Shown here: one piece after another, positions 4,812-15,294 of the stretch
How positions within the stretch are numbered: the stretch's first letter is position 1
How the letters are laid out: each line of letters opens with the position of its first letter
NCBI GenBank assembly: GCA_002269645.1
Contig: NIVC01002959.1
Location: forward strand, 62,001 to 126,000
From: Macrostomum lignano
Taxonomy: Eukaryota
Reading direction: 5' to 3'
DNA: 64,000 bases
Translations under genes and position numbers: made by a program
The notes under the pieces: generated by a model
Database searches by the model: none
Seen by the model: only the letters and a program-made list of their open reading frames with translations
Told to the model about the DNA's origin: nothing

Positions 4812-5427
4812 TTTAGTCAGACCCCACTGCACCAGGGGAGGTCAGATATTTATTATATAATTTCGTTGCAGAGTCCACAGTATGTGCTTTCCTATACAGC
4901 AAGGCAACTGGACACTTAATTGTGAGACTTTCGCCTTTCTGGGGTCACCGGATCCGTTCGCCATATATGGGCTTTTCATTTCCGGCTGTGAAGCGGGAAA
5001 CGGATACGAAACAGACATTTTTGGGGGTTACATTTCATGATTTTTTGTGTTCTTTTTTTGCTCTCCTGCAGCATTGAGACTCCGCGGAGTGTGGTGATGG
5101 TGCAAGTGTCACACCCCCCTGAGATAGACGTCTGTGACCCCCCTAGATCGCTGTGACCTCATCTTAAACCTTTGTGAACCCTCCTAGACCAGCACCGTGA
5201 CCCCCTCATAGACCTCTGTCTGTGACCCCCTAGACCTCTGTGATCCCCCTCCCAGGCTTGCGACCCAACCCATGTGACACTCATAATCTTCACCCGGCGC
5301 AGAGAGCCTGAGCAGTGAGTGAGCACACAACCAGCATCTTCCCTAAACCCTAACACCCCAGTTTCCTGAGCTGAATTCTAATCTGGCAAAGAGAGAGAAG
5401 TGACTGCAAAGGAAAAGCAAATTAATG

Positions 5428-6262
5428 TGTCATGAATGTGTTATGACAGTGTGCTCTTTGCTAAGTTGCTGCACCGGGCCAGTGGGCCGTCCTCTCCCCC
5501 TCCCCCCTCCTTAGATATTTTCTGACTCACCCACCTGCACTTCTGCGCGTGCGTACCCCTCCCCTCCCTGCCTAGACCTTTTCTGTTGAGTCAACCCCCC
5601 ATGCTCTGCGTGCGACCCCCCCCCTGTGCGACCCCGCCCCATTATTTTGTTAGCTTTGCTGCCCCGCCCCTGTTTGTGATTGGCTGCCAGTCCCAGTCTG
5701 CCGTGCTGCGCCCCGGCGATTGGCTGGTACAGCTCATGCGTTGCCTTGGCTGATGTCTAAGCCCCCTTTTCTGCCTTTATCCCGCGCCCTCAACCCCCAG
5801 TTTGCTGCCTATTTATTCAGAGCCCCGTGAGACCCCATTCTCGTTGTCTTCGTGGCTCCTCGGCGATTGTGCCAGCGTTGGTTGCGGAATTGCTATTCCT
5901 CGCCGAATTGCTAGACAAATATATAAGTAAAGAATATCGAGATCACCACTGCTCTGACGGCGCTGTTTCTTGTACGACTGAAATCGCGGCTGGTAAGCCT
6001 TCCAATTTGCACGTCATTTGGGTCTGCATCTGTACTAGGCACCTTAGAGGGATTAACTGCGTCGTACGCCGGTCCCACCCCAAGCAGCTCTGCGTCGTAC
6101 GCAAGTCGGTAGGCTGTCGTGCGTCGTACGCTCGAACAGCCTAGTCCCGACGGACACCGCGTCGTACGCGTGTCAGTGGAGGACCGTAGCCAGGGTCAGT
6201 ACACGAACCCGAGTCTGGGAAAGGGGCACGAAAGGACCGAGCCCTTGAGCCCCATCATCACA
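5428..6262 (+). repeat. 5' LTR (835 bp)
   Basis: Starts TGTCATGA and ends TCATCACA (imperfect terminal inverted repeat). Direct repeat of 13237-14070. Contains two GATTGGCTG (CCAAT-type) boxes and TATATAA at 5920-5926. Confidence 0.96.
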
Positions 6263-6265
6263 AAT

Positions 6266-6282
6266 TGGCATCCTTGGTGGGA
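6266..6282 (+). other. Primer-binding site TGGCATCCTTGGTGGGA
   Basis: Lies 3 nt after the LTR. Its complement (UCCCAC-CAAGGAU-G-CCA) has the geometry of a tRNA 3' end: T-stem strand, 7-nt acceptor strand, discriminator G, CCA. tRNA identity not established. Confidence 0.8.
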
Positions 6283-6370
6283 CCCTGCGCTGTGGAAGAC
6301 TAAGTAAGGAAGAAAGCTCGAGGCGCGGAATATTGTGAGAAATTAAGGTTAGAAACTGTGACGCCGTGGT

Positions 6371-7495
6371 ATGGATGCTGGAGGTGCTGCTGGAGGTGCG
6401 GCTGGAGGTGCGGCTGGAGGTGCTGCTGGAGGTGCTGCCGGAGGTGCGGCTGGAGGTGCGGCTGGAGGTGCTGCTGGAGGTGCGGCTGGAGGTGCGGCTG
6501 AAGGTGCGGCTGGAGGTGCTGCTGGAGCCTTTGGTGTTAATGATCTGGTCGCCGCCTTGACTGCCCAGATTCAGCAGAACATGCAGCAAGCGGGTGCCCT
6601 CAGGATTCAGAGGCCGGTGAAGTATGCTCCAGGAATGAATTTCGTGAAGTGGTTGAGGCTCTTCGTAGCTTATTGCGATGCCATGCAGATTCCGATGCAG
6701 AATCGGCGCGCTCAGTTGCTCAGCAACCTAGACTTCAGCACCTTCCAAGTTGTTGACAACATGAACCTTGATGACGACCTGCAGTTCGAAGAATTTACCC
6801 AGGCCTTGAGGGATAGGTTCACTATGCACCGTACCGTCGTCGACTACCGCACAGAACTGAGCAATAGAGAGCAGAGCGAGAAGGAGTCGGTAGAAGATTT
6901 CTCTGAAGCTGTGATTGAGTTGGTCGCAAACGCCTTTCCTGATGCGCCTGCCGATGTGCGCGATGATCTTGCGAAAGAGCGATTTATGCGAGGCGTCCGT
7001 GCGGGGGTGGCTGTGCGTGAGCGACTGTACATGAGCCAGCCGGATACGTTAGCGGACGCAATGCGTCTGGTGCATCAGCTGGAAGCGGCGGTTAGGGCAA
7101 GTCATGGTCCACCAGGTCAGGTATCGAAAAGAGCCGTTTGCGCTGTCACGACCGAAACCCGAAAGGAGGCTTCCGAAAGCAGTGAGGTCGAGATGCTTCG
7201 AAAACAGCTGGCGGCCATGGAGATGCGAATGAAAGAGATGGAGGAGCGGAGGTCTGAAGAAGCGGCAGAGCCGACCCCGGCGAGTCGGAAGGCTGTGCAG
7301 TGTTTTTCGTGTCGAGAGTGGGGCCATATCTCATCAAAGTGTCCGAAGAAGACCAGTCAGAAGAGTGAAAACGGGAAATCGCCAGTACGATGTCACAAGT
7401 GCAACGGTGAAGGCCACCTATCCTTCAAGTGTCCGAAGTCGGGAAACGGGCCGAGGGGACCGACCGGGGAGAGTCGGGACCCTGCCAGGAAGTGA
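6371..7495 (+). CDS. gag: Gag polyprotein (374 aa) with N-terminal Ala/Gly repeat and two CCHC zinc knuckles
   Basis: CFSCREWGHISSKC and CHKCNGEGHLSFKC knuckles. Retrotransposon gag-like core (QSEKESVEDFSEAVIELVANAFP). First ATG after the PBS. Confidence 0.93.
   Translation: MDAGGAAGGAAGGAAGGAAGGAAGGAAGGAAGGAAGGAAGGAAEGAAGGAAGAFGVNDLVAALTAQIQQNMQQAGALRIQRPVKYAPGMNFVKWLRLFVAYCDAMQIPMQNRRAQLLSNLDFSTFQVVDNMNLDDDLQFEEFTQALRDRFTMHRTVVDYRTELSNREQSEKESVEDFSEAVIELVANAFPDAPADVRDDLAKERFMRGVRAGVAVRERLYMSQPDTLADAMRLVHQLEAAVRASHGPPGQVSKRAVCAVTTETRKEASESSEVEMLRKQLAAMEMRMKEMEERRSEEAAEPTPASRKAVQCFSCREWGHISSKCPKKTSQKSENGKSPVRCHKCNGEGHLSFKCPKSGNGPRGPTGESRDPARK
7441..7483 (+). other. -1 programmed ribosomal frameshift signal (gag-pol)
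   Basis: Slippery heptamer G GGA AAC at 7441-7447 in the gag frame, 6-nt spacer, then hairpin AGGG-GA-CCGAC / GTCGG-GA-CCCT (7454-7483). Pol is in the -1 frame. Confidence 0.8.
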
Positions 7496-10400
7496 AGTCT
7501 CCCAGGAGCGAGGAACCGGGGTTGGGCACTAACTCTGTAAATAAATCCAAGTGCGTCTCTGGTGATGGGAATTTAAAGAGCAACCTGGTTCAAGAGGGGT
7601 TCGTCGGTATCAACGGAGCCCTTGACAGTTTTATTTCCGGTGCGGTTTCCGGCAAGCCAGTGGCTCTGCTGTTAGACAGTGGTGCGAGTGTGTCAGTGCT
7701 GAGCTGTGATGTTTTCCTGAGGCTGCCGCAAGAAGTGAGAGAGAGACTGACGATGATGGACGGGGCCCTTTCAACGGCCAATGGAGGTGCGATGAGGATG
7801 AGAGGCTGTATTGTGCTGGACGTGGAGATTGGCGGCGAGCGGTGGTCAGCGAATTTCTTTGTAGTGGACGGATTGCGCTATGACGTCATTCTCGGGTCCG
7901 AATTTTTCAAACAGCATCGTTGCGTCATCAACTATTCAGAGTTTGTCTTTCGAGTGGGCGATGTTAGAGTTCCGATACGGCAGAAAGGCGAGCTGCCCGT
8001 GGTGTGTCGAATCAAAGCCGAGACAACGGTATTCCTGGAACCGGCGCAAGAAGTGATCATGCCAGCCAGGGTAGAGAAAAAGGGCGCAAGAAACTGCGGA
8101 TCTGTCGGCATAACGGAAGAAAAGTCAGTGAAGGCCTCTGAGAAGGATTTGGCGCTGGCTCGAGCTCTGGTAGCGCCCGGCGTGGATGGACGGCTGCCGA
8201 TGAGATTGCTGAATACGTCCAGTTGTAGGAAGAGGGTCAAGAAAGGAGAGACGATTGGCTGGTTTATTCCTTTGGAACCGAACGGAGGTATCAACGTGGT
8301 GCGCTTGGACGACGACGTAGAGGCCAAGAATGAAGCGGAGGCATGGGACCCGATCGAAGAATTCCGCGAGTGGGGTTCGTGTGGCCTGTCGGAGGAGGAG
8401 GAAGCCGACTTCAGGGAGCTGATTTCCCAACATCGGGCTGTCTTTGCTAAGGACTCCAAGGATCTCGGCTGTACGACGGTGATGAAGCACGAGATCGACA
8501 CTGGAGATGCCAGGCCTGTGAAAGAAGCGGCGAGGCGGATTCCCCCGTACCTGCGGCAGGAAGTGGACGAGGAGTTGGATGACTTGCTGGAAGCTGGGAG
8601 AATCAGCGAGGTCCAGTCCCCATGGTGCTCTCCGGTGGTGTGCGTGAAAAAGAAGGACGGTTCCCTGAGGTTCTGTTGTGACTACCGGAAACTGAATGAA
8701 GTGACCAAGAAGGATGCAGTGCCGTTGCCCAGGACAGATGACCTGTTGGAGAGCCTAGGCGGTGCCAAGATTTTTTCGACCATGGACATGCAGTCGGGAT
8801 ACTGGCAGATGGCGGTGGAACCCAGCGACAGACTAAAGACGGCCTTTGGCGTTTCACACCGGGTACAGCAGTACGCCTGGAACGTTATGCCATTTGGATT
8901 GACAAATGCACCGGCTTCATTCAGCCGGCTAATGAATGTGGTGTTGGGGAAGTTGTGCTGGAAGACGTGTTTGGTGTATCTGGACGACCTGCTAGTGTGG
9001 TCACGAACGGTGGAAGAGCACCTGGAACGGTTGCAAACGGTTTTTCGACGGTTGCGAGCAGCGAACATCAAACTGAAGCCGAAGAAGTGCGCATTCCTGC
9101 TGAAGTCAGTGACCTTCCTGGGACACGTAGTGTCAGCTGATGGGATCGCCACGAGTCCAGAAAAGATTGCCGAAATTCGTGACTGGCCAACTCCGAGGAA
9201 TGTGAAGGAAGTAAGGTCATTCCTGGGACTGTGCGGGTATTACCGGCAATTCATCGCAGATTTTTCCCGCATTGCTGAGCCGATGCTGCGACGGACCCGA
9301 CATGATTGCCCGTGGAGCTGGGATGAGGAGTGTCAAGCCGCATTCGAGGCCCTGAAGGAAAGGTTGCAGGGATCTGAGGTCATGGCGTTTCCAAACTTTG
9401 CGGAGGACGCTGGAGAATTCGTTTTAGACACAGACGGTAGCACAAAAGAAGGAATTGGCGCTGTGCTTTCGCAGGTGCAGAAAGATGGGAGTGAGAAGGT
9501 AATAGCTTACGGAAGCAGGACGTTGTCGCGAGAAGAACGGAATTACTGCACGACACGAGTCGAGTTGCTGGCCGTGGTGTTTTTCGTACAGAAGTTTCGT
9601 TATTACCTGATGGGGCGAGAGTTTCTAGTGCGCACCGATCACAGCAGCTTGAAGTGGCTGCATTCGCTGCGGGACGTAGAAGGACAACTGGCCAGATGGC
9701 TGGAACTCTTGGCTCCGTACAGGTATCGCATCGAACATCGTCCGGGAGTGAAACATCAACACGCGGACGCTCTCTCCAGGAAGCCACGTCGGCGCCATCA
9801 AGGAAGCGAGAGTTGTCCTGGATGTGCACAAGAGCAGATCGGCGTGAACGCGTTGGGATTGCAGAAGTGGACCTCGGAGGAGATCAGAGAGAGCCAGAAG
9901 ATGGACAGCGACATTCGTCAGGCGATGGAGCTGCTGGCTCACGGCGACGGAGAGATAACCGAAGAGCATTTGCGGCGCATATCACCGACGGCAAGGAGGA
10001 TTGTCGAAAGACGTCGTGACCTTGAGGTGTCGGACAGTGAGGTGTTGCTGTGTCATACGGCCAGTAGACGTCAGCCGCAAGTGGTGTTGCCACGGAATAT
10101 GCTGAGAGCGGTGCTGGAAGAAGCTCATGGTGGACGGAGTGGAGGGCACGTTGGGATTTTCAAGACCAAGGAGAAGGTGCGGCAATCGTTTTGGAGGCCG
10201 GGACTTGGCCGCGAGGTCGAAGAGCACGTAAAAGCCTGTTTGGACTGCACCAAGGCCAAAGCTGGCAAGAAACCAATTGCACCGATGGAGCCGATTCCGA
10301 GTTCAAGCCCATTCGATATCGTGATGACGGACGTCATCGGGCCGCTGCCACGGAGCAAGAAAGGAAACTTCTACATCCTCACGGTGCAAGATGCGTTCTC

Positions 10401-10941
10401 AAAGTGGCCTGACGCTTATGCCATCCGGAACCAGAAGGCGGCAACGATCGCAAGGGTGCTATTCGAACGCTGGATTGCCAATCACGGGTGCCCCCGGGTA
10501 CTTCACTCAGACCAAGGAAGGAACTTTGAGTCGGGGATCGTCAGGAAGCTGTGCGAGCTGTTGGGTGTGAAGAAGACCAGGACGAGCGCCTACCACCCGA
10601 GTGGCAACGGACAGGTGGAACGATTTAATGGGTTCCTGAAGAACAGTTTGCGCTCGTATCTGGTACAGAAGGGTCAGAACGCCTGGGAGGAGTACCTGCC
10701 AAGTGCATTGATGGCTTATCGATCGACGGTCCAGGCGTCCACCGGTTACACGCCCTACTACATGCTGCATGGTCAGGAGATGCCACTGGGATTCGAACCA
10801 GAAGACCTTAGGCGAAAGACGGACAGCTATCCCTTGTTTGTGCAAGAGATTCAGCAGAACCTGCTTCATGCCCATGAACACGTTCGAGAAGGGCGCGAGA
10901 CGGTTCAGCGACGCCAGAAAATGAATACGATCGGAAAGTGA
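7442..10941 (+). CDS. pol: Pol polyprotein: aspartic protease, reverse transcriptase, RNase H, integrase (reached by frameshift)
   Basis: LLDSGAS protease. CDYRKLN, MPFGL and YLDD in RT. LDTDG...GIGAVLSQ and TDHSSL in RNase H. Integrase zinc finger H-x6-H...C-x2-C and core TDVIGP / LHSDQGRNFES / GQVERFN. Confidence 0.97.
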
Positions 10942-11577
10942 AGGGCAAGGCGATTCAGAAGGGCGACTCTGTCTTGCTGTACTATCCGTGCTTGGAGATG
11001 GGAGAGAAAAGCAAATTCCATATCAACTGGCGCAGTGAAGAGAAGCTGTCAGATGCGTGGTGCACTTCAACAATCTCCGGCCGGTTCAGGTTCAGACGGA
11101 GGCGGCAGACGGTCAAGAGACAAGAGAGGAAATTGGGAGGGCCAGTTCGAGAAAAACCAGACCGCGACGCGGTAACTCCGCTGCTGGACGAAGCCGAAGG
11201 CAGAGAGTGCAACGGGGCGAGACCCAGAGGTGGACCGCAGCGCGAGGGCCGCAGGACCCGGAATCCGAGCAGGAAGATGAAGAGTTTGAAGATCTTCAGC
11301 TGCGGTTTCAAGATCCAAGAGATCACGCTCCGCCGGACACCCGAAATCTGGCCGAGACCGTGAGCCCGGACCTGAGCGTCCAGAAGCAGACGATGACGAA
11401 GAAGAGCACTTTGATGAGGCGCGGTACGACGAGGAGCAAAACGAAGAGGATGAGGCAGAGCCGAACGACGCCAACGTACCCGAGCAGGAAGTGAGGACGG
11501 CACAGGAGGAAGCAGGGCGACCAAGACGTCTGCGGCGACCGCCAGATCGGTTTGGGGTCCCGGTGTACCACTACTGA
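10926..11577 (+). pseudogene. Frameshifted C-terminal tail of integrase/pol
   Basis: Reading across three -1 shifts gives QKMNYDRKVKGKAIQKGDSVLLYYP...KFHINW...VVHFNNLRP...acidic tract...RPRRLRRPPDRFGVPVYHY-stop (TGA 11575-11577). These are typical gypsy integrase-tail motifs. Confidence 0.75.
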
Positions 11578-11676
11578 AGAAGGGTCCGGTGTACGGCGCT
11601 TGGATAGCCAAGGGGGAAGGGAGGTTCATGTCGTGCGTGTCTCATTGCTCATCGGAGTTAGGCCGGACTGTTACAG

Positions 11677-11970
11677 ATGGCGGACCTCTACGAGTGTCTT
11701 GGAGTGCAGCTGTGGGCGTCTGCGGCACAGATTCGGAAAGCGTTCTACGGTCGAGCACGCGAACTGCACCCTGACAAGAGCGCAACAGAGGAGACGCGGA
11801 AGAGATTCCAGGAGTGCGAAGAGGCGTACCGAATACTGTCGTGTCCGTTCCTTAGAAAGCTGTACGATATCTTTGGAAATGCTGTTCGTGACCGGGATGA
11901 GATGCTTCGGCTCGCAGAAGGAATGTTAGAGGATGACGACATGCCCGAAGAGATCTCCGAGAAGAGATAG
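11677..11970 (+). CDS. ORF3 part 1: J-domain (DnaJ/Hsp40-type) with intact HPD motif
   Basis: DLYECLGV...ASAAQIRKAF...ARELHPDK...RFQECEEAYRILSCP..RKLYDIFG matches the J-domain consensus over its whole length. HPD at 11767-11775. Confidence 0.9.
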   Translation: MADLYECLGVQLWASAAQIRKAFYGRARELHPDKSATEETRKRFQECEEAYRILSCPFLRKLYDIFGNAVRDRDEMLRLAEGMLEDDDMPEEISEKR

Positions 11971-12662
11971 AAAGACTAGAGAGCGACCGATTAGCTGAGG
12001 AGGCGTACGAGAGAGAACAGGCGAGGAGGGATGAGGAGCACGTCAAGATGGAGGCAAGTGAGGAGGCCTCAGACGATGAGCAGGACGAAGAGATGAACGA
12101 GGCGAGTGAGACACTGCCGGAGGAGTACGAGGTCGAGAAGGTCTTAGGAGTACGAGTCACGGAGCGAGGAGCGGAGTATCTGCTGCAGTGGGCCGGTGTA
12201 GAGGAGCTTGAGACGTCATGGGAAGCGGAGGAAGATTGTGCCGGATGTAGAAACCTGATTGAAGAATACCTGCAGAGAGCGTACCGGCTTCAGACAAGAC
12301 CGTGCCGACCAGTGACCGTCGCGGAACTCGAGAACGTAGGACCCAGTCGGAAGAAACTGCATCAGGCAATGCGGAAGGGCGACTCGTGGGGCATCTTTGA
12401 GGTGCTGCTAGCCCTGAAGGGGAAGTGCGCCACTGCCTTGGTGGATTTCAAGGAATTCGGTCCGGAGTTGATGCTGCAGATCCTGGGCTACTTGGAGCGA
12501 GACGGTCGCAAGTATCCGGGGCACGGAGTTCGTCGGTGGAGTCGCCAAGCGTGTCAAGCTGTCTACATGTCGGTGATGGTGGTGTTCCCGCTGTTCGACC
12601 TGCGACGCCAGGGTTTGGTCCTGGGTGCCCTCCGTAGGCTGTGGGATTCGTGCTCTGACTGA
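11952..12662 (+). CDS. ORF3 part 2: charged/acidic linker, HP1-like chromodomain, C-terminal helical domain; probably continuous with the J-domain
   Basis: Frame is open from 11937 and overlaps the J ORF. EEYEVEKVL.VR....GAEYLLQWAG.EE.E.SWEAEEDC.GC..LIEEY (about 12120-12278) aligns with CBX/HP1 chromodomains. One extra G at 11952 fuses both parts into a 328-aa ORF. Confidence 0.85.
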   Translation, partial: DLREEIERLESDRLAEEAYEREQARRDEEHVKMEASEEASDDEQDEEMNEASETLPEEYEVEKVLGVRVTERGAEYLLQWAGVEELETSWEAEEDCAGCRNLIEEYLQRAYRLQTRPCRPVTVAELENVGPSRKKLHQAMRKGDSWGIFEVLLALKGKCATALVDFKEFGPELMLQILGYLERDGRKYPGHGVRRWSRQACQAVYMSVMVVFPLFDLRRQGLVLGALRRLWDSCSD

Positions 12663-13224
12663 GGCTATGTCTTCCTAGGGACTTTGGGGCTAGGGACTTT
12701 GCAGTGCAGACCCAGGGACAGCGGAGCGGAGGTGGACCGGCCTTAACGGGTGCTGACGGAGCGACACGGCTGTGCAGCAACCGCAGGACTCGACGACCAG
12801 CGCAGAGCGACCAGAGCAACCGGCGACAGTAGCGACAGGGAGACGAGGCACCAGAGCGACGGCCGTACTCGGCGGGATGCAGGGAAGCAGTGCTAGTATT
12901 ACTTGTGAGAGTAAATGTTTGACGGTTTCATTTTTTTGTTTTTTTGTTAACATTTAGCGTTTTTTTCGAACTTCAGCGTTTTTGTTAAAGTGAGTTTTTC
13001 CCAAAATTTGCGTTTTGCTTCCCAATGATGCGTACTCACTATCCTATGTTGAAGGTTTCTTCGTCATTTTTAAACGGTATAATCACTGCGGTTTTGTTTT
13101 TTGTTCGAACTAGTTGCCATGCGAGTCCAAAATATTTTTCAAATGCGGTTTGTTCCTCTGTTCAATTTTTTTGTTATAGTAGCATCATTTCAATATTCGA
13201 CTTTTCGAACTCGAACTTTTGTCT

Positions 13225-13236
13225 AGGGGGAGGGAG
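13225..13236 (+). other. Polypurine tract AGGGGGAGGGAG
   Basis: Purine run directly abutting the 3' LTR. Confidence 0.9.
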
Positions 13237-14070
13237 TGTCATGAATGTGTTATGACAGTGTGCTCTTTGCTAAGTTGCTGCACCGGGCCAGTGGGCCGTC
13301 CTCTCCCCCTCCCCCTCCTTAGATATTTTCTGACTCACCCACCTGCACTTCTGCGCGTGCGTACCCCTCCCCTCCCTGCCTAGACCTTTTCTGTTGAGTC
13401 AACCCCCCATGCTCTGCGTGCGACCCCCCCCCTGTGCGACCCCGCCCCATTATTTTGTTAGCTTTGCTGCCCCGCCCCTGTTTGTGATTGGCTGCCAGTC
13501 CCAGTCTGCCGTGCTGCGCCCCGGCGATTGGCTGGTACAGCTCATGCGTTGCCTTGGCTGATGTCTAAGCCCCCTTTTCTGCCTTTATCCCGCGCCCTCA
13601 ACCCCCAGTTTGCTGCCTATTTATTCAGAGCCCCGTGAGACCCCATTCTCGTTGTCTTCGTGGCTCCTCGGCGATTGTGCCAGCGTTGGTTGCGGAATTG
13701 CTATTCCTCGCCGAATTGCTAGACAAATATATAAGTAAAGAATATCGAGATCACCACTGCTCTGACGGCGCTGTTTCTTGTACGACTGAAATCGCGGCTG
13801 GTAAGCCTTCCAATTTGCACGTCATTTGGGTCTGCATCTGTACTAGGCACCTTAGAGGGATTAACTGCGTCGTACGCCGGTCCCACCCCAAGCAGCTCTG
13901 CGTCGTACGCAAGTCGGTAGGCTGTCGTGCGTCGTACGCTCGAACAGCCTAGTCCCGACGGACACCGCGTCGTACGCGTGTCAGTGGAGGACCGTAGCCA
14001 GGGTCAGTACACGAACCCGAGTCTGGGAAAGGGGCACGAAAGGACCGAGCCCTTGAGCCCCATCATCACA
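13237..14070 (+). repeat. 3' LTR (834 bp)
   Basis: The only difference from the 5' LTR that I found is one C in a homopolymer (C6 near 5502-5507 vs C5 near 13311-13315). Confidence 0.96.
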
Positions 14071-15294
14071 AATGACTGAATATATATCTATATTTTTTTA
14101 ACATCCTCTTCTCCATCACACTGGGATGATAATTATGATTGCAAAAGTGAAAGTGATAAATGCGCAGTCACGACAAACCGTTAATTGCATTGTTGCTCAA
14201 AGCTTCTCGGGCTGCGTCATGCGAGTCGCTAGTGCAGGTCCCACCTCACCTGAGCACAGGATGCGGGGCGCATGCACCAGGATTTTTCAGGCGGGATCCC
14301 GCTAGATGTCCTGATTTGCATGCAGACTCATGCGCCACAGCCACTTGGCCCCATATTATAGATGTTCGTGCTTATTTACCTAATGCAACGGGTACAGCCC
14401 AGTGTGTACCTCCTGGCGAATTTTGTGACTAACATCTATAGTATGCCCTGCTCACAGAACCAAATCCCAAGGTATTAGTGACACCTGGACCTATCGTTAC
14501 AATCAATCAAAACACACAAGATTTCCTTAATTATAGAAAAAGTGTCAACGCTCAAGCGTCAACTGAGATTTTGATGATTTCAATATCTATGCAGACTCCT
14601 TGGCCTTGCCGACAAAGCATCATTGGGAGTTCGAATACCTGGACAGACGGGTACTGAGGCAAAACACCGCGAATCCCCACAAGTTTTATGGGGCTCCCTG
14701 CGCAATGCGGCCAGCCCAAAATGTCAAACTGCTTCCCCGTCTCTAAGGAGCTCTGCTCCCAAGCAGACGCTCGAATCAAATCAAGGAGAAACGGCCGCCG
14801 TCCACGGCCACGTGTCGCCTCTCGGACTCGACCCCGACTCGTCCGTCAAGAGCTGAGGAAATTTATCGAGAATTGAATAGAAATGCCTGCGTTATGATTA
14901 TTATTATTGGGTGCTTGATGGGGAACTCCTGACTGAGATTTACGACCTGTTCCTGAGCTCTGTTTCTCAGCGTTGGCAATGCCGTCCTTCATTAAGGCTC
15001 CCCCTGCGTCCGGCACTGCACCACATCAACCCAACTGCTTTTTTGGTTTTGGCGCCAGCGGGATCTTATTGGAGTCGAGGAGGCTGCAGTTGAGCAATGA
15101 GGTGTGTAGGTTGTTGCCAGGCGGATGCCAGGTTGACTGAAGGCCGTTCGCTGGAATGAAAGAGAGGTTGAAGCGGCAGCTTTTGACGCTTGAGAGTAAA
15201 GTGACTGCCTTCTGGCCGGATCAGGGCAATATGGGGACCCAGGGGAGATTGATAGATCAGAGTTGAGATCGCCAGGTGCTGCTGGTGAGGCACC

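Follow-up and report, generated by a model that had tools for sequence, protein, structure and literature searches.

The window analysed here is a stretch of 64,000 nucleotides of Macrostomum lignano DNA (contig NIVC01002959.1 of assembly GCA_002269645.1, positions 62,001 to 126,000). Positions 5428-14070 of the window hold one complete, young Ty3/gypsy LTR retrotransposon. Its two long terminal repeats are 99.9% identical, with lengths of 835 and 834 bp and a single indel as the only difference. Hallmarks of Ty3/gypsy elements were found: TG..CA LTRs, a target-site duplication, a primer-binding site, a polypurine tract, and a gag gene followed by pol in the order PR-RT-RH-IN (Pfam). Behind pol lies a third open reading frame (ORF3), which is the subject of this analysis. 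The features of the element are:

5424..5427 (left copy) and 14071-14074 (right copy), + strand: target-site duplication (TSD) AATG
5428..6262, + strand: 5' LTR, TG..CA, 99.9% identical to the 3' LTR
5993..5997, + strand: splice-donor-like GTAAG in the LTR
6266..6283, + strand: primer-binding-site-like sequence (TGG...)
6371..7495, + strand: gag, two CCHC knuckles, weak PNMA and Retrotrans_gag matches (Pfam)
7411..11577, + strand: pol, PR-RT-RH-IN, overlaps gag, frame open until 10941
11671..11676, + strand: splice-acceptor-like TTACAG immediately 5' of the ORF3 ATG
11677..11970, + strand: ORF3 5' piece in the window copy, J-domain at ~11683-11868 with HPD at 11767-11775, then helices
11937..12662, + strand: ORF3 3' piece in the window copy, acidic linker, chromodomain and C-terminal domain (CTD)
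12126..12278, + strand: HP1/Swi6-type chromodomain, A lineage only, two of three cage aromatics in family A
12339..12650, + strand: five-helix CTD, conserved, with a basic G-H/R-G-x-R-R-W-x-R patch
13225..13236, + strand: polypurine tract (PPT)
13237..14070, + strand: 3' LTR

The gag/pol overlap contains a GGGAAAC heptamer at 7441, and in the window copy the 3' end of pol suffered several indels which break the frame after 10941. No chromodomain match was detected by Pfam in the pol frames of this element's family (A) or of the related family B, so the integrase-fused chromodomain that marks chromoviruses is missing. With respect to the Gmr1/Osvaldo cluster (as used in PMC12801592), the window element resembles the published Mlig-id38 consensus, by eye only. 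To the right of the element, much of the sequence at window 15200-54000 consists of many different tandem arrays with periods of 8-32 bp.

In the window copy, ORF3 is split into two pieces in different frames, both downstream of the final pol stop (11577) and upstream of the PPT (13225-13236). The first piece (11677-11970) encodes a DnaJ domain (PF00226, E 1.9e-16, profile positions 1-63/63) with its HPD motif at 11767-11775. The second (11937-12662) encodes a chromodomain (PF00385, E 4.3e-13, profile positions 1-53/53) and about 125 more residues. Both matches are above cut-off and bear out the sequence-only reading of this stretch, which had described a complete J-domain with an intact HPD, followed by an HP1/CBX-like chromodomain and a further ~125 residues.

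A DNA search of the G000 genome resulted in 37 matches to the element, 24 of them near full length. An uninterrupted ORF containing both the J-domain and the chromodomain is present in 17 of these 24 copies (328 aa in 15 copies, 326 aa in two) and is broken in the other 7. The frame break near 11950 is private to the window copy among the 24 and is either a real mutation or an assembly error. It had been proposed that a single base joins the two pieces into 328 aa. This is indeed the length of the natural ORF in 15 copies, but the window copy differs from the reference copies by two small indels in this ORF, not one. ORF3 was read from natural continuous copies and the window ORF was left unrepaired. 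Among the 22 family-A copies with the LTR end found, 16 distinct 3' flanks were seen. The sequence of the natural protein (P0001) coincides exactly with that of the NCBI gene model 'hypothetical protein BOX15_Mlig001265g8 [Macrostomum lignano]', and its UniRef label is 'J domain-containing protein'. Another database gene model (P0157) fuses an MSH6-like gene (identified by eye) with family-A gag, pol, and ORF3, which suggests that in some assembly a family-A element is inserted inside the MSH6-like gene.

Two other explanations of the frame were considered and rejected. A programmed frameshift within ORF3 is contradicted by the continuity of most copies and by the lack of a slippery heptamer in the overlap, which had already been pointed out from the sequence. 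An env identity is contradicted by the absence of a transmembrane stretch in six ORF3 proteins (maximum KD19 0.94-1.35) and by an N-terminus which is not hydrophobic. The codon style of ORF3 had been likened to that of gag and pol. Its codon usage correlates better with that of pol (RSCU r 0.60) than with that of a host DNAJB gene (0.41), but this signal is weak and few genes were compared. In family A there are 9 frame-breaking events per kb in ORF3 and 39 in the 3' end of pol, where 30 indels come from one copy. Because of this skew and a possible RNA-seq polishing bias, these rates were set aside as evidence; one published M. lignano assembly was polished partly with RNA-seq, which could affect indel rates (PMC5730564).

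The model of the J-domain superposes on solved J-domains with an rmsd of 1.0-2.0 A. The zinc finger and the DnaJ_C substrate-binding domain of class A/B DnaJ (Hsp40) proteins were searched for and neither PF00684 nor PF01556 produced a match at E<=1, so ORF3 does not belong to these classes. The linker is strongly acidic (18-19 acidic residues per 40). Among solved structures, the chromodomain matches best with Swi6 and HP1/CBX (E 2e-10 to 3e-9). The HP1 aromatic cage consists of Y24/W45/Y48 (PMC3350952); the cage residues are Y/W/V in family A (Y151/W172/V175), Y/W/L in the database protein P0003, and F/W/F, a complete aromatic cage, in the subfamilies A2 and A3. Given the valine at the third cage position, methyl-lysine binding by the family-A protein may be weak.

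The CTD is confidently predicted as five helices (pLDDT 83, pTM 0.77). Its best fold match (Z 8.0, rmsd 3.3 over 103 residues) is to unrelated bundles and Foldseek returned nothing at E<=0.001. Searches with Pfam, PDB sequences, Foldseek (pdb and viral), VIA-align, and ESM Atlas gave no support for a LEDGF-IBD/TFIIS-N identity of the CTD, with the reservation that absence from such lists does not amount to exclusion. In the full-length AlphaFold model the chromodomain was left unresolved because most rows of the alignment lack it.

Protein searches of G000 uncovered related ORF3s in many further families (the family letters are labels given here). The ORF3s of A2 and A3 are respectively 56-58% and 37% identical to that of family A; both contain the chromodomain and both are decayed. 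In families B, B2, C, C2, D, H, and G, ORF3 encodes a J-domain, an acidic linker, and the CTD without a chromodomain. A chromodomain profile detected no remnant of it in B, C, D, G, or the database proteins P0029 and P0158. The HPD motif is kept in A, A2, B, B2, C, C2, D, H, G, and three database proteins, and is invariant across the 8 sequences of alignment A4. Family B ORF3 (293 aa) is located inside an LTR element, behind a pol 48% identical to that of family A. The primer-binding site of the family B element is presumably of the tRNA-Lys type.

ORF3 follows integrase sequence in every locus fetched (B, B2, C, C2, D, H, F, G, K). Among the matches listed, an ORF3 match lies at most 3 kb downstream of 24 of the 31 integrases which are at least 84% identical, and of 55 of the 60 integrases at 55-65% identity. 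At 49-52% identity a downstream ORF3 was found in 5/33 of the integrases listed, or in 23/33 once family K was added (hand count). This tally covers 124 of the 150 integrase matches listed, those below 49% identity having been left out. The integrases 49-52% identical to A with no downstream ORF3 match are found at G000:C150, C272, C4067, C1405, C23, C109, C2475, C222, C3798, and C10, and these elements may have either no ORF3 or a more divergent one. In the opposite direction, 84 of 112 ORF3 matches have an integrase upstream (among the integrase matches listed). The remaining 28 include deleted or truncated copies and copies whose partners fall outside the matches listed; at one locus (L053) there is no pol upstream.

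In the integrase-core tree the seven ORF3-bearing lineages group together with a support of 99/99, the outgroup being thin (two other gypsy integrases). The sister pairs B/B2, C/C2, and D/H are the same in the pol and J trees, and families F and K are paired both in the pol tree (83/84) and in the ORF3 tree (100/98). The deep nodes of the ORF3 and integrase trees are poorly settled, and therefore no donor or sequence of events is claimed. ORF3 is a conserved third gene of a Macrostomum Ty3/gypsy clade. Outside G000, protein databases contained three full-length or near-full relatives: P0003 (with a chromodomain, 76% identical), P0029, and P0158. All other protein-database matches were single-domain matches or M. 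lignano gene models. No relatives of P0001 were found in scans of metagenome and viral contigs.

Several individual loci are described here separately. The A2 loci L031 and L032 have internal deletions, and their gag and pol are 72-95% identical to those of family A. Most of their ORF3 is 56-58% identical to the family-A gene and the last 55 codons are nearly the same, which points to recombination between subfamilies. At L031 about 650 bp separate the J part from the chromodomain part. L055 was tried as a family-A relative without ORF3 and rejected; it is interrupted by a LINE-like insertion. L054 (G000:C575) and four more loci encode a different multi-copy J-domain protein with frames of up to 1449 codons, related to ORF3 in the J-domain only. 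L040 and L044 are HP1-like host genes in which the chromo and chromo-shadow domains are split by a long repetitive insert (frames of 650-736 codons).

The most divergent make-up is that of families K and F. About 20 copies of family K were found, and in many of them a frame of 571 codons is open (L056:1120-2700, L057). Its J-like domain has no HPD and matches PF00226 below cut-off (E 0.002). Its CTD scores 12.0 bits, compared with a maximum of 3.0 in 200 shuffles, and aligns over 105 columns with an hhalign E of 1e-3. Behind the CTD lies a TatD-like domain (PF01026 E 2e-4, below cut-off), for which all 7 weak PDB matches are TatD-type proteins. Family F (L048) has RPD in place of HPD and the same tail as K. 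Since both families lack the HPD, stimulation of Hsp70 appears to be dispensable in one lineage. The make-up of family K also shows that the constant unit of ORF3 consists of a J or J-like domain, the acidic linker, and the five-helix CTD. The chromodomain (A lineage only) and the TatD-like domain (F/K) are lineage-specific additions. The combination of J-domain and chromodomain which had drawn attention to this locus is therefore real in the A lineage, but it is not the conserved unit: the chromodomain is confined to A and the HPD is missing from F/K.

The HPD-less lineage raises the possibility that the J fold serves as a scaffold or decoy. The protein would then work mainly through its CTD, binding RNA, DNA, or a host defence protein (for example a piRNA-pathway factor), or it would soak up Hsp70 or HP1 partners without catalytic remodelling. 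F and K retain the J-like fold and the CTD without the HPD, and their added TatD-like domain seems to lack several catalytic residues; the basic patch on the CTD is also in line with such a role. However, all 8 sequences of alignment A4 share the HPD, and dN/dS of the J-domain is low. This explanation is quite unlikely.

Selection was estimated as dN/dS (Nei-Gojobori) on natural pairs, several of the dS values being near saturation. The A/A2 pair yielded 0.15 for the J-domain, 0.25 for the chromodomain, and 0.20-0.22 for the CTD, and the B/B2 pair 0.09 for the J-domain, 0.11 for the CTD, and 0.66 for the linker. The J-domain value for D/H is 0.10. In the close pair C/C2 the whole ORF has a dN/dS of 0.23, the J-domain 0.36 (with a wide interval), and the CTD 0.08, and the CTD of the C/L053 pair has 0.23. 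The uncorrected pN/pS intervals exclude 1 in all folded domains apart from the J-domain of C/C2. Family A by itself shows 30 distinct synonymous changes against 16 non-synonymous ones (pN/pS 0.16). The gene is under purifying selection, and ORF3 is almost certainly a real, selected gene.

These results also bear on the origin of the gene. In favour of a passive or recently captured host fragment, or an artefact of the window copy, it can be said that the window copy is broken, that ORF3 is broken in 7 of the 24 family-A copies, and that its separate mRNA is only inferred. Against this, ORF3 recurs across many families and copies, and its dN/dS is far below 1. Among the host genes seen, even the nearest are distant (a DNAJB-type J-domain 37% identical and HP1/CBX chromodomains 31-38% identical), and the only full-length database relatives are M. 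lignano models and three other proteins. Such a capture or artefact is very improbable. The presence of ORF3 in one copy only and a dN/dS near 1, two of the outcomes that would have spoken for it, are both contradicted, by the 17/24 open family-A copies together with the clade-wide families and by values of 0.08-0.36 in the folded domains. The long residence proposed by the sequence-only reading agrees with the multi-copy status, the low dN/dS, and the best host matches seen being only 31-38% identical, and the sequences support ORF3 as a long-resident, element-borne gene.

The position of the start codon suggests how ORF3 may be expressed. Its ATG directly follows an AG in A, A2, C, C2, D, and H, and is located one base further in A3 and G, 7 bases away in K, and ~14 in B. 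M. lignano acceptor motifs are CAG (cis) and [T/C]TNCAG (spliced-leader, SL, trans-splicing) (PMC8629364), and the family-A TTACAG fits both. A possible donor is found in the LTR, which reads G-GTAAG with the junction after 5992; one contig of run X5 departs from the LTR exactly at 5992. The contigs of 4 runs from 4 studies (presumed RNA) span 29-30 of 30 bins, with single pieces reaching across ORF3; the one bin of unique flank has a depth of 0-1.9. In these contigs, which cannot rank genes, no splice joint into ORF3 was found, neither one from 5992 to 11677 nor an SL-bearing end at 11677. LTR-to-LTR joints that go back were considered as circles and rejected, as the duplicated LTR explains them. 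M. lignano NCBI gene models probably derive from the transcriptome-guided annotation of PMC5730564. The element is likely transcribed, and because a splice acceptor is located at or just before the ATG, we infer that ORF3 would be translated from its own spliced or SL-trans-spliced mRNA.

No canonical heat-shock element (HSE) was detected in the window element, including its 5' LTR, or in loci L031-L036. A tie to the heat-induced M. lignano LTR families was also tried and found no support, given the lack of an HSE and of any row with both DnaJ and chromo in a table with one incomplete cell. Six ORF3-start motifs were not found in supplement 5 of the heat study, a weak negative since its lines and cells are incomplete. 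Of the 35-nt M. lignano spliced leader (PMC8629364), an unbroken run of 33 bases is found in the LTR of family B, at L036 ~8082-8114, L036 ~200, and L034 ~7442. A trans-spliced RNA may have been the source from which the family B element copied the leader.

The ORF3 protein is soluble and modular, consisting of the J-domain, the acidic linker, an optional module, and the CTD. It could act as a nuclear J-domain adaptor, in which the CTD and the acidic linker would hold a client and the HPD-bearing J-domain would call Hsp70, which would then remodel the client or set it free. The lineage-A chromodomain would dock the protein on chromatin with methylated H3. There the most likely client would be a silencing or nucleosome complex of the host that sits on copies of the element itself, making ORF3 an anti-silencing factor. 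As a whole, this chain (own mRNA, nuclear Hsp70 adaptor, and anti-silencing in lineage A) is tentative and falls somewhat short of probable. Because the chromodomain is missing from most families, chromatin reading does not qualify as the ancestral, essential function. The plant J-domain protein (JDP) precedent described below compacts chromatin rather than opening it, which counts against anti-silencing.

The client could also be the element's own machinery. ORF3 would then bring Hsp70 to the particle or integration complex in order to fold, uncoat, or dismantle it, and the lineage-A chromodomain would tether the integration complex to marked chromatin in trans, as the integrase-fused chromodomain of chromoviruses does. 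The core is kept across the clade and the sister pairs agree between pol and ORF3 (B/B2, C/C2, D/H, F/K), and the integrase itself carries no chromodomain. There are also precedents: RNA-virus J-domains were proposed to help folding or assembly (bioRxiv 2022.02.15.480533) and the MAGGY chromodomain directs integration (PMC3350952). However, no LEDGF IBD/TFIIS-N-type domain was present among the listed fold or Pfam matches of the CTD. Between families ORF3 is only 25-35% identical while clade integrase is 50-62% identical, and such faster divergence is what host-facing adaptors tend to display. The related family Mlig-id38 has a short pol-PPT gap and no third ORF (consensus read by eye). A role in the element's own machinery is possible, though on balance it is rather improbable.

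The anti-silencing proposal can be carried further. ORF3 would be the first retroelement-encoded Hsp70 co-chaperone, its J-domain captured long ago and fused to the CTD, with reader modules (HP1-like chromodomain, TatD-like domain) swapped since. In lineage A it would strip HP1/silencing complexes from the element's own H3K9-methylated copies via host Hsp70. This full scenario is unlikely as it stands. M. lignano is a flatworm model with transgenesis (PMC5730564), and the natural variants that differ in the presence of the chromodomain and of the HPD make chaperone-based de-silencing or aiming of integration directly testable there.

Extra non-env ORF3s in LTR elements are already known. In the literature searched, no J-domain ORF was described in an LTR retrotransposon, with Repbase, Dfam, GyDB, and the earlier Macrostomum classification outside its scope. 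The main text of the M. lignano LTR survey (PMC12801592), as searched, contains no DnaJ, chromo, or ORF, and the available text of PMC6338049 and PMC8775202 has no mention of DnaJ. A J-domain ORF3 in an LTR element is apparently undescribed, a novelty which is provisional. The nearest parallel in layout comes from bdelloid rotifers, whose LTR retrotransposons carry a GDSL esterase or a DEDDy exonuclease as non-env ORF3 cargo (PMC5408684). Both groups have a separate, family-specific, modular third ORF behind pol, which is not env and for which a spliced message is expected. The Macrostomum cargo is different, being a J-domain adaptor with a CTD, and DnaJ is not mentioned in the available text of PMC5408684.

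With chromoviruses, chromodomain-bearing errantiviruses, and SM1-Galahad, the A lineage shares a Ty3/gypsy element with a classical chromodomain (PMC13524379, PMC3350952). In chromoviruses the chromodomain is placed at the C-terminus of integrase (PMC13524379), whereas the integrase of the Macrostomum elements has none and the chromodomain is part of a J-domain protein, in a single sub-lineage. The earlier premise that chromoviruses carry the chromodomain on integrase and not in a separate ORF describes the usual state, but one exception exists: the reconstructed SM1-Galahad of Selaginella has a short, separate, chromodomain-only ORF3 (PMC3350952).

J-domains are also found in the polyproteins of 11 RNA-virus families and in polyomavirus T antigens (bioRxiv 10.1101/2022.02.15.480533). 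In common with ORF3, these are parasite-encoded N-terminal J-domains presumed to recruit host Hsp70. ORF3 differs in belonging to an LTR retrotransposon, in being a stand-alone ORF, and in its swappable partner domains. A clade-wide J-domain gene under selection suggests that these elements steer Hsp70, as polyomaviruses do. Among host chromatin proteins, DNAJC9 (PMC8221569) and the Arabidopsis PKL-associated JDPs (10.64898/2026.09.14.751395) likewise combine a J-domain with a histone- or chromatin-binding part. These are however host genes with other binding domains, and in database searches their sequence relation to ORF3 is limited to the J-domain. For genome annotation, the present results mean that many DnaJ matches in the M. 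lignano genome are transposon copies and not host chaperone genes.

In the role proposed for it, ORF3 is closest to the VANC proteins of plant VANDAL DNA transposons, whose anti-silencing activity was shown experimentally (PMC5735166, PMC10398659). Both would be transposon accessory proteins directed against host silencing. The proteins are unrelated, VANC belongs to plant DNA transposons, and its function is experimental while that of ORF3 is proposed only. In animals, only a few counter-defence or targeting proteins are known to be encoded by transposons. If the anti-silencing reading is true, ORF3 would be an animal counterpart of plant VANC with a chaperone mechanism.
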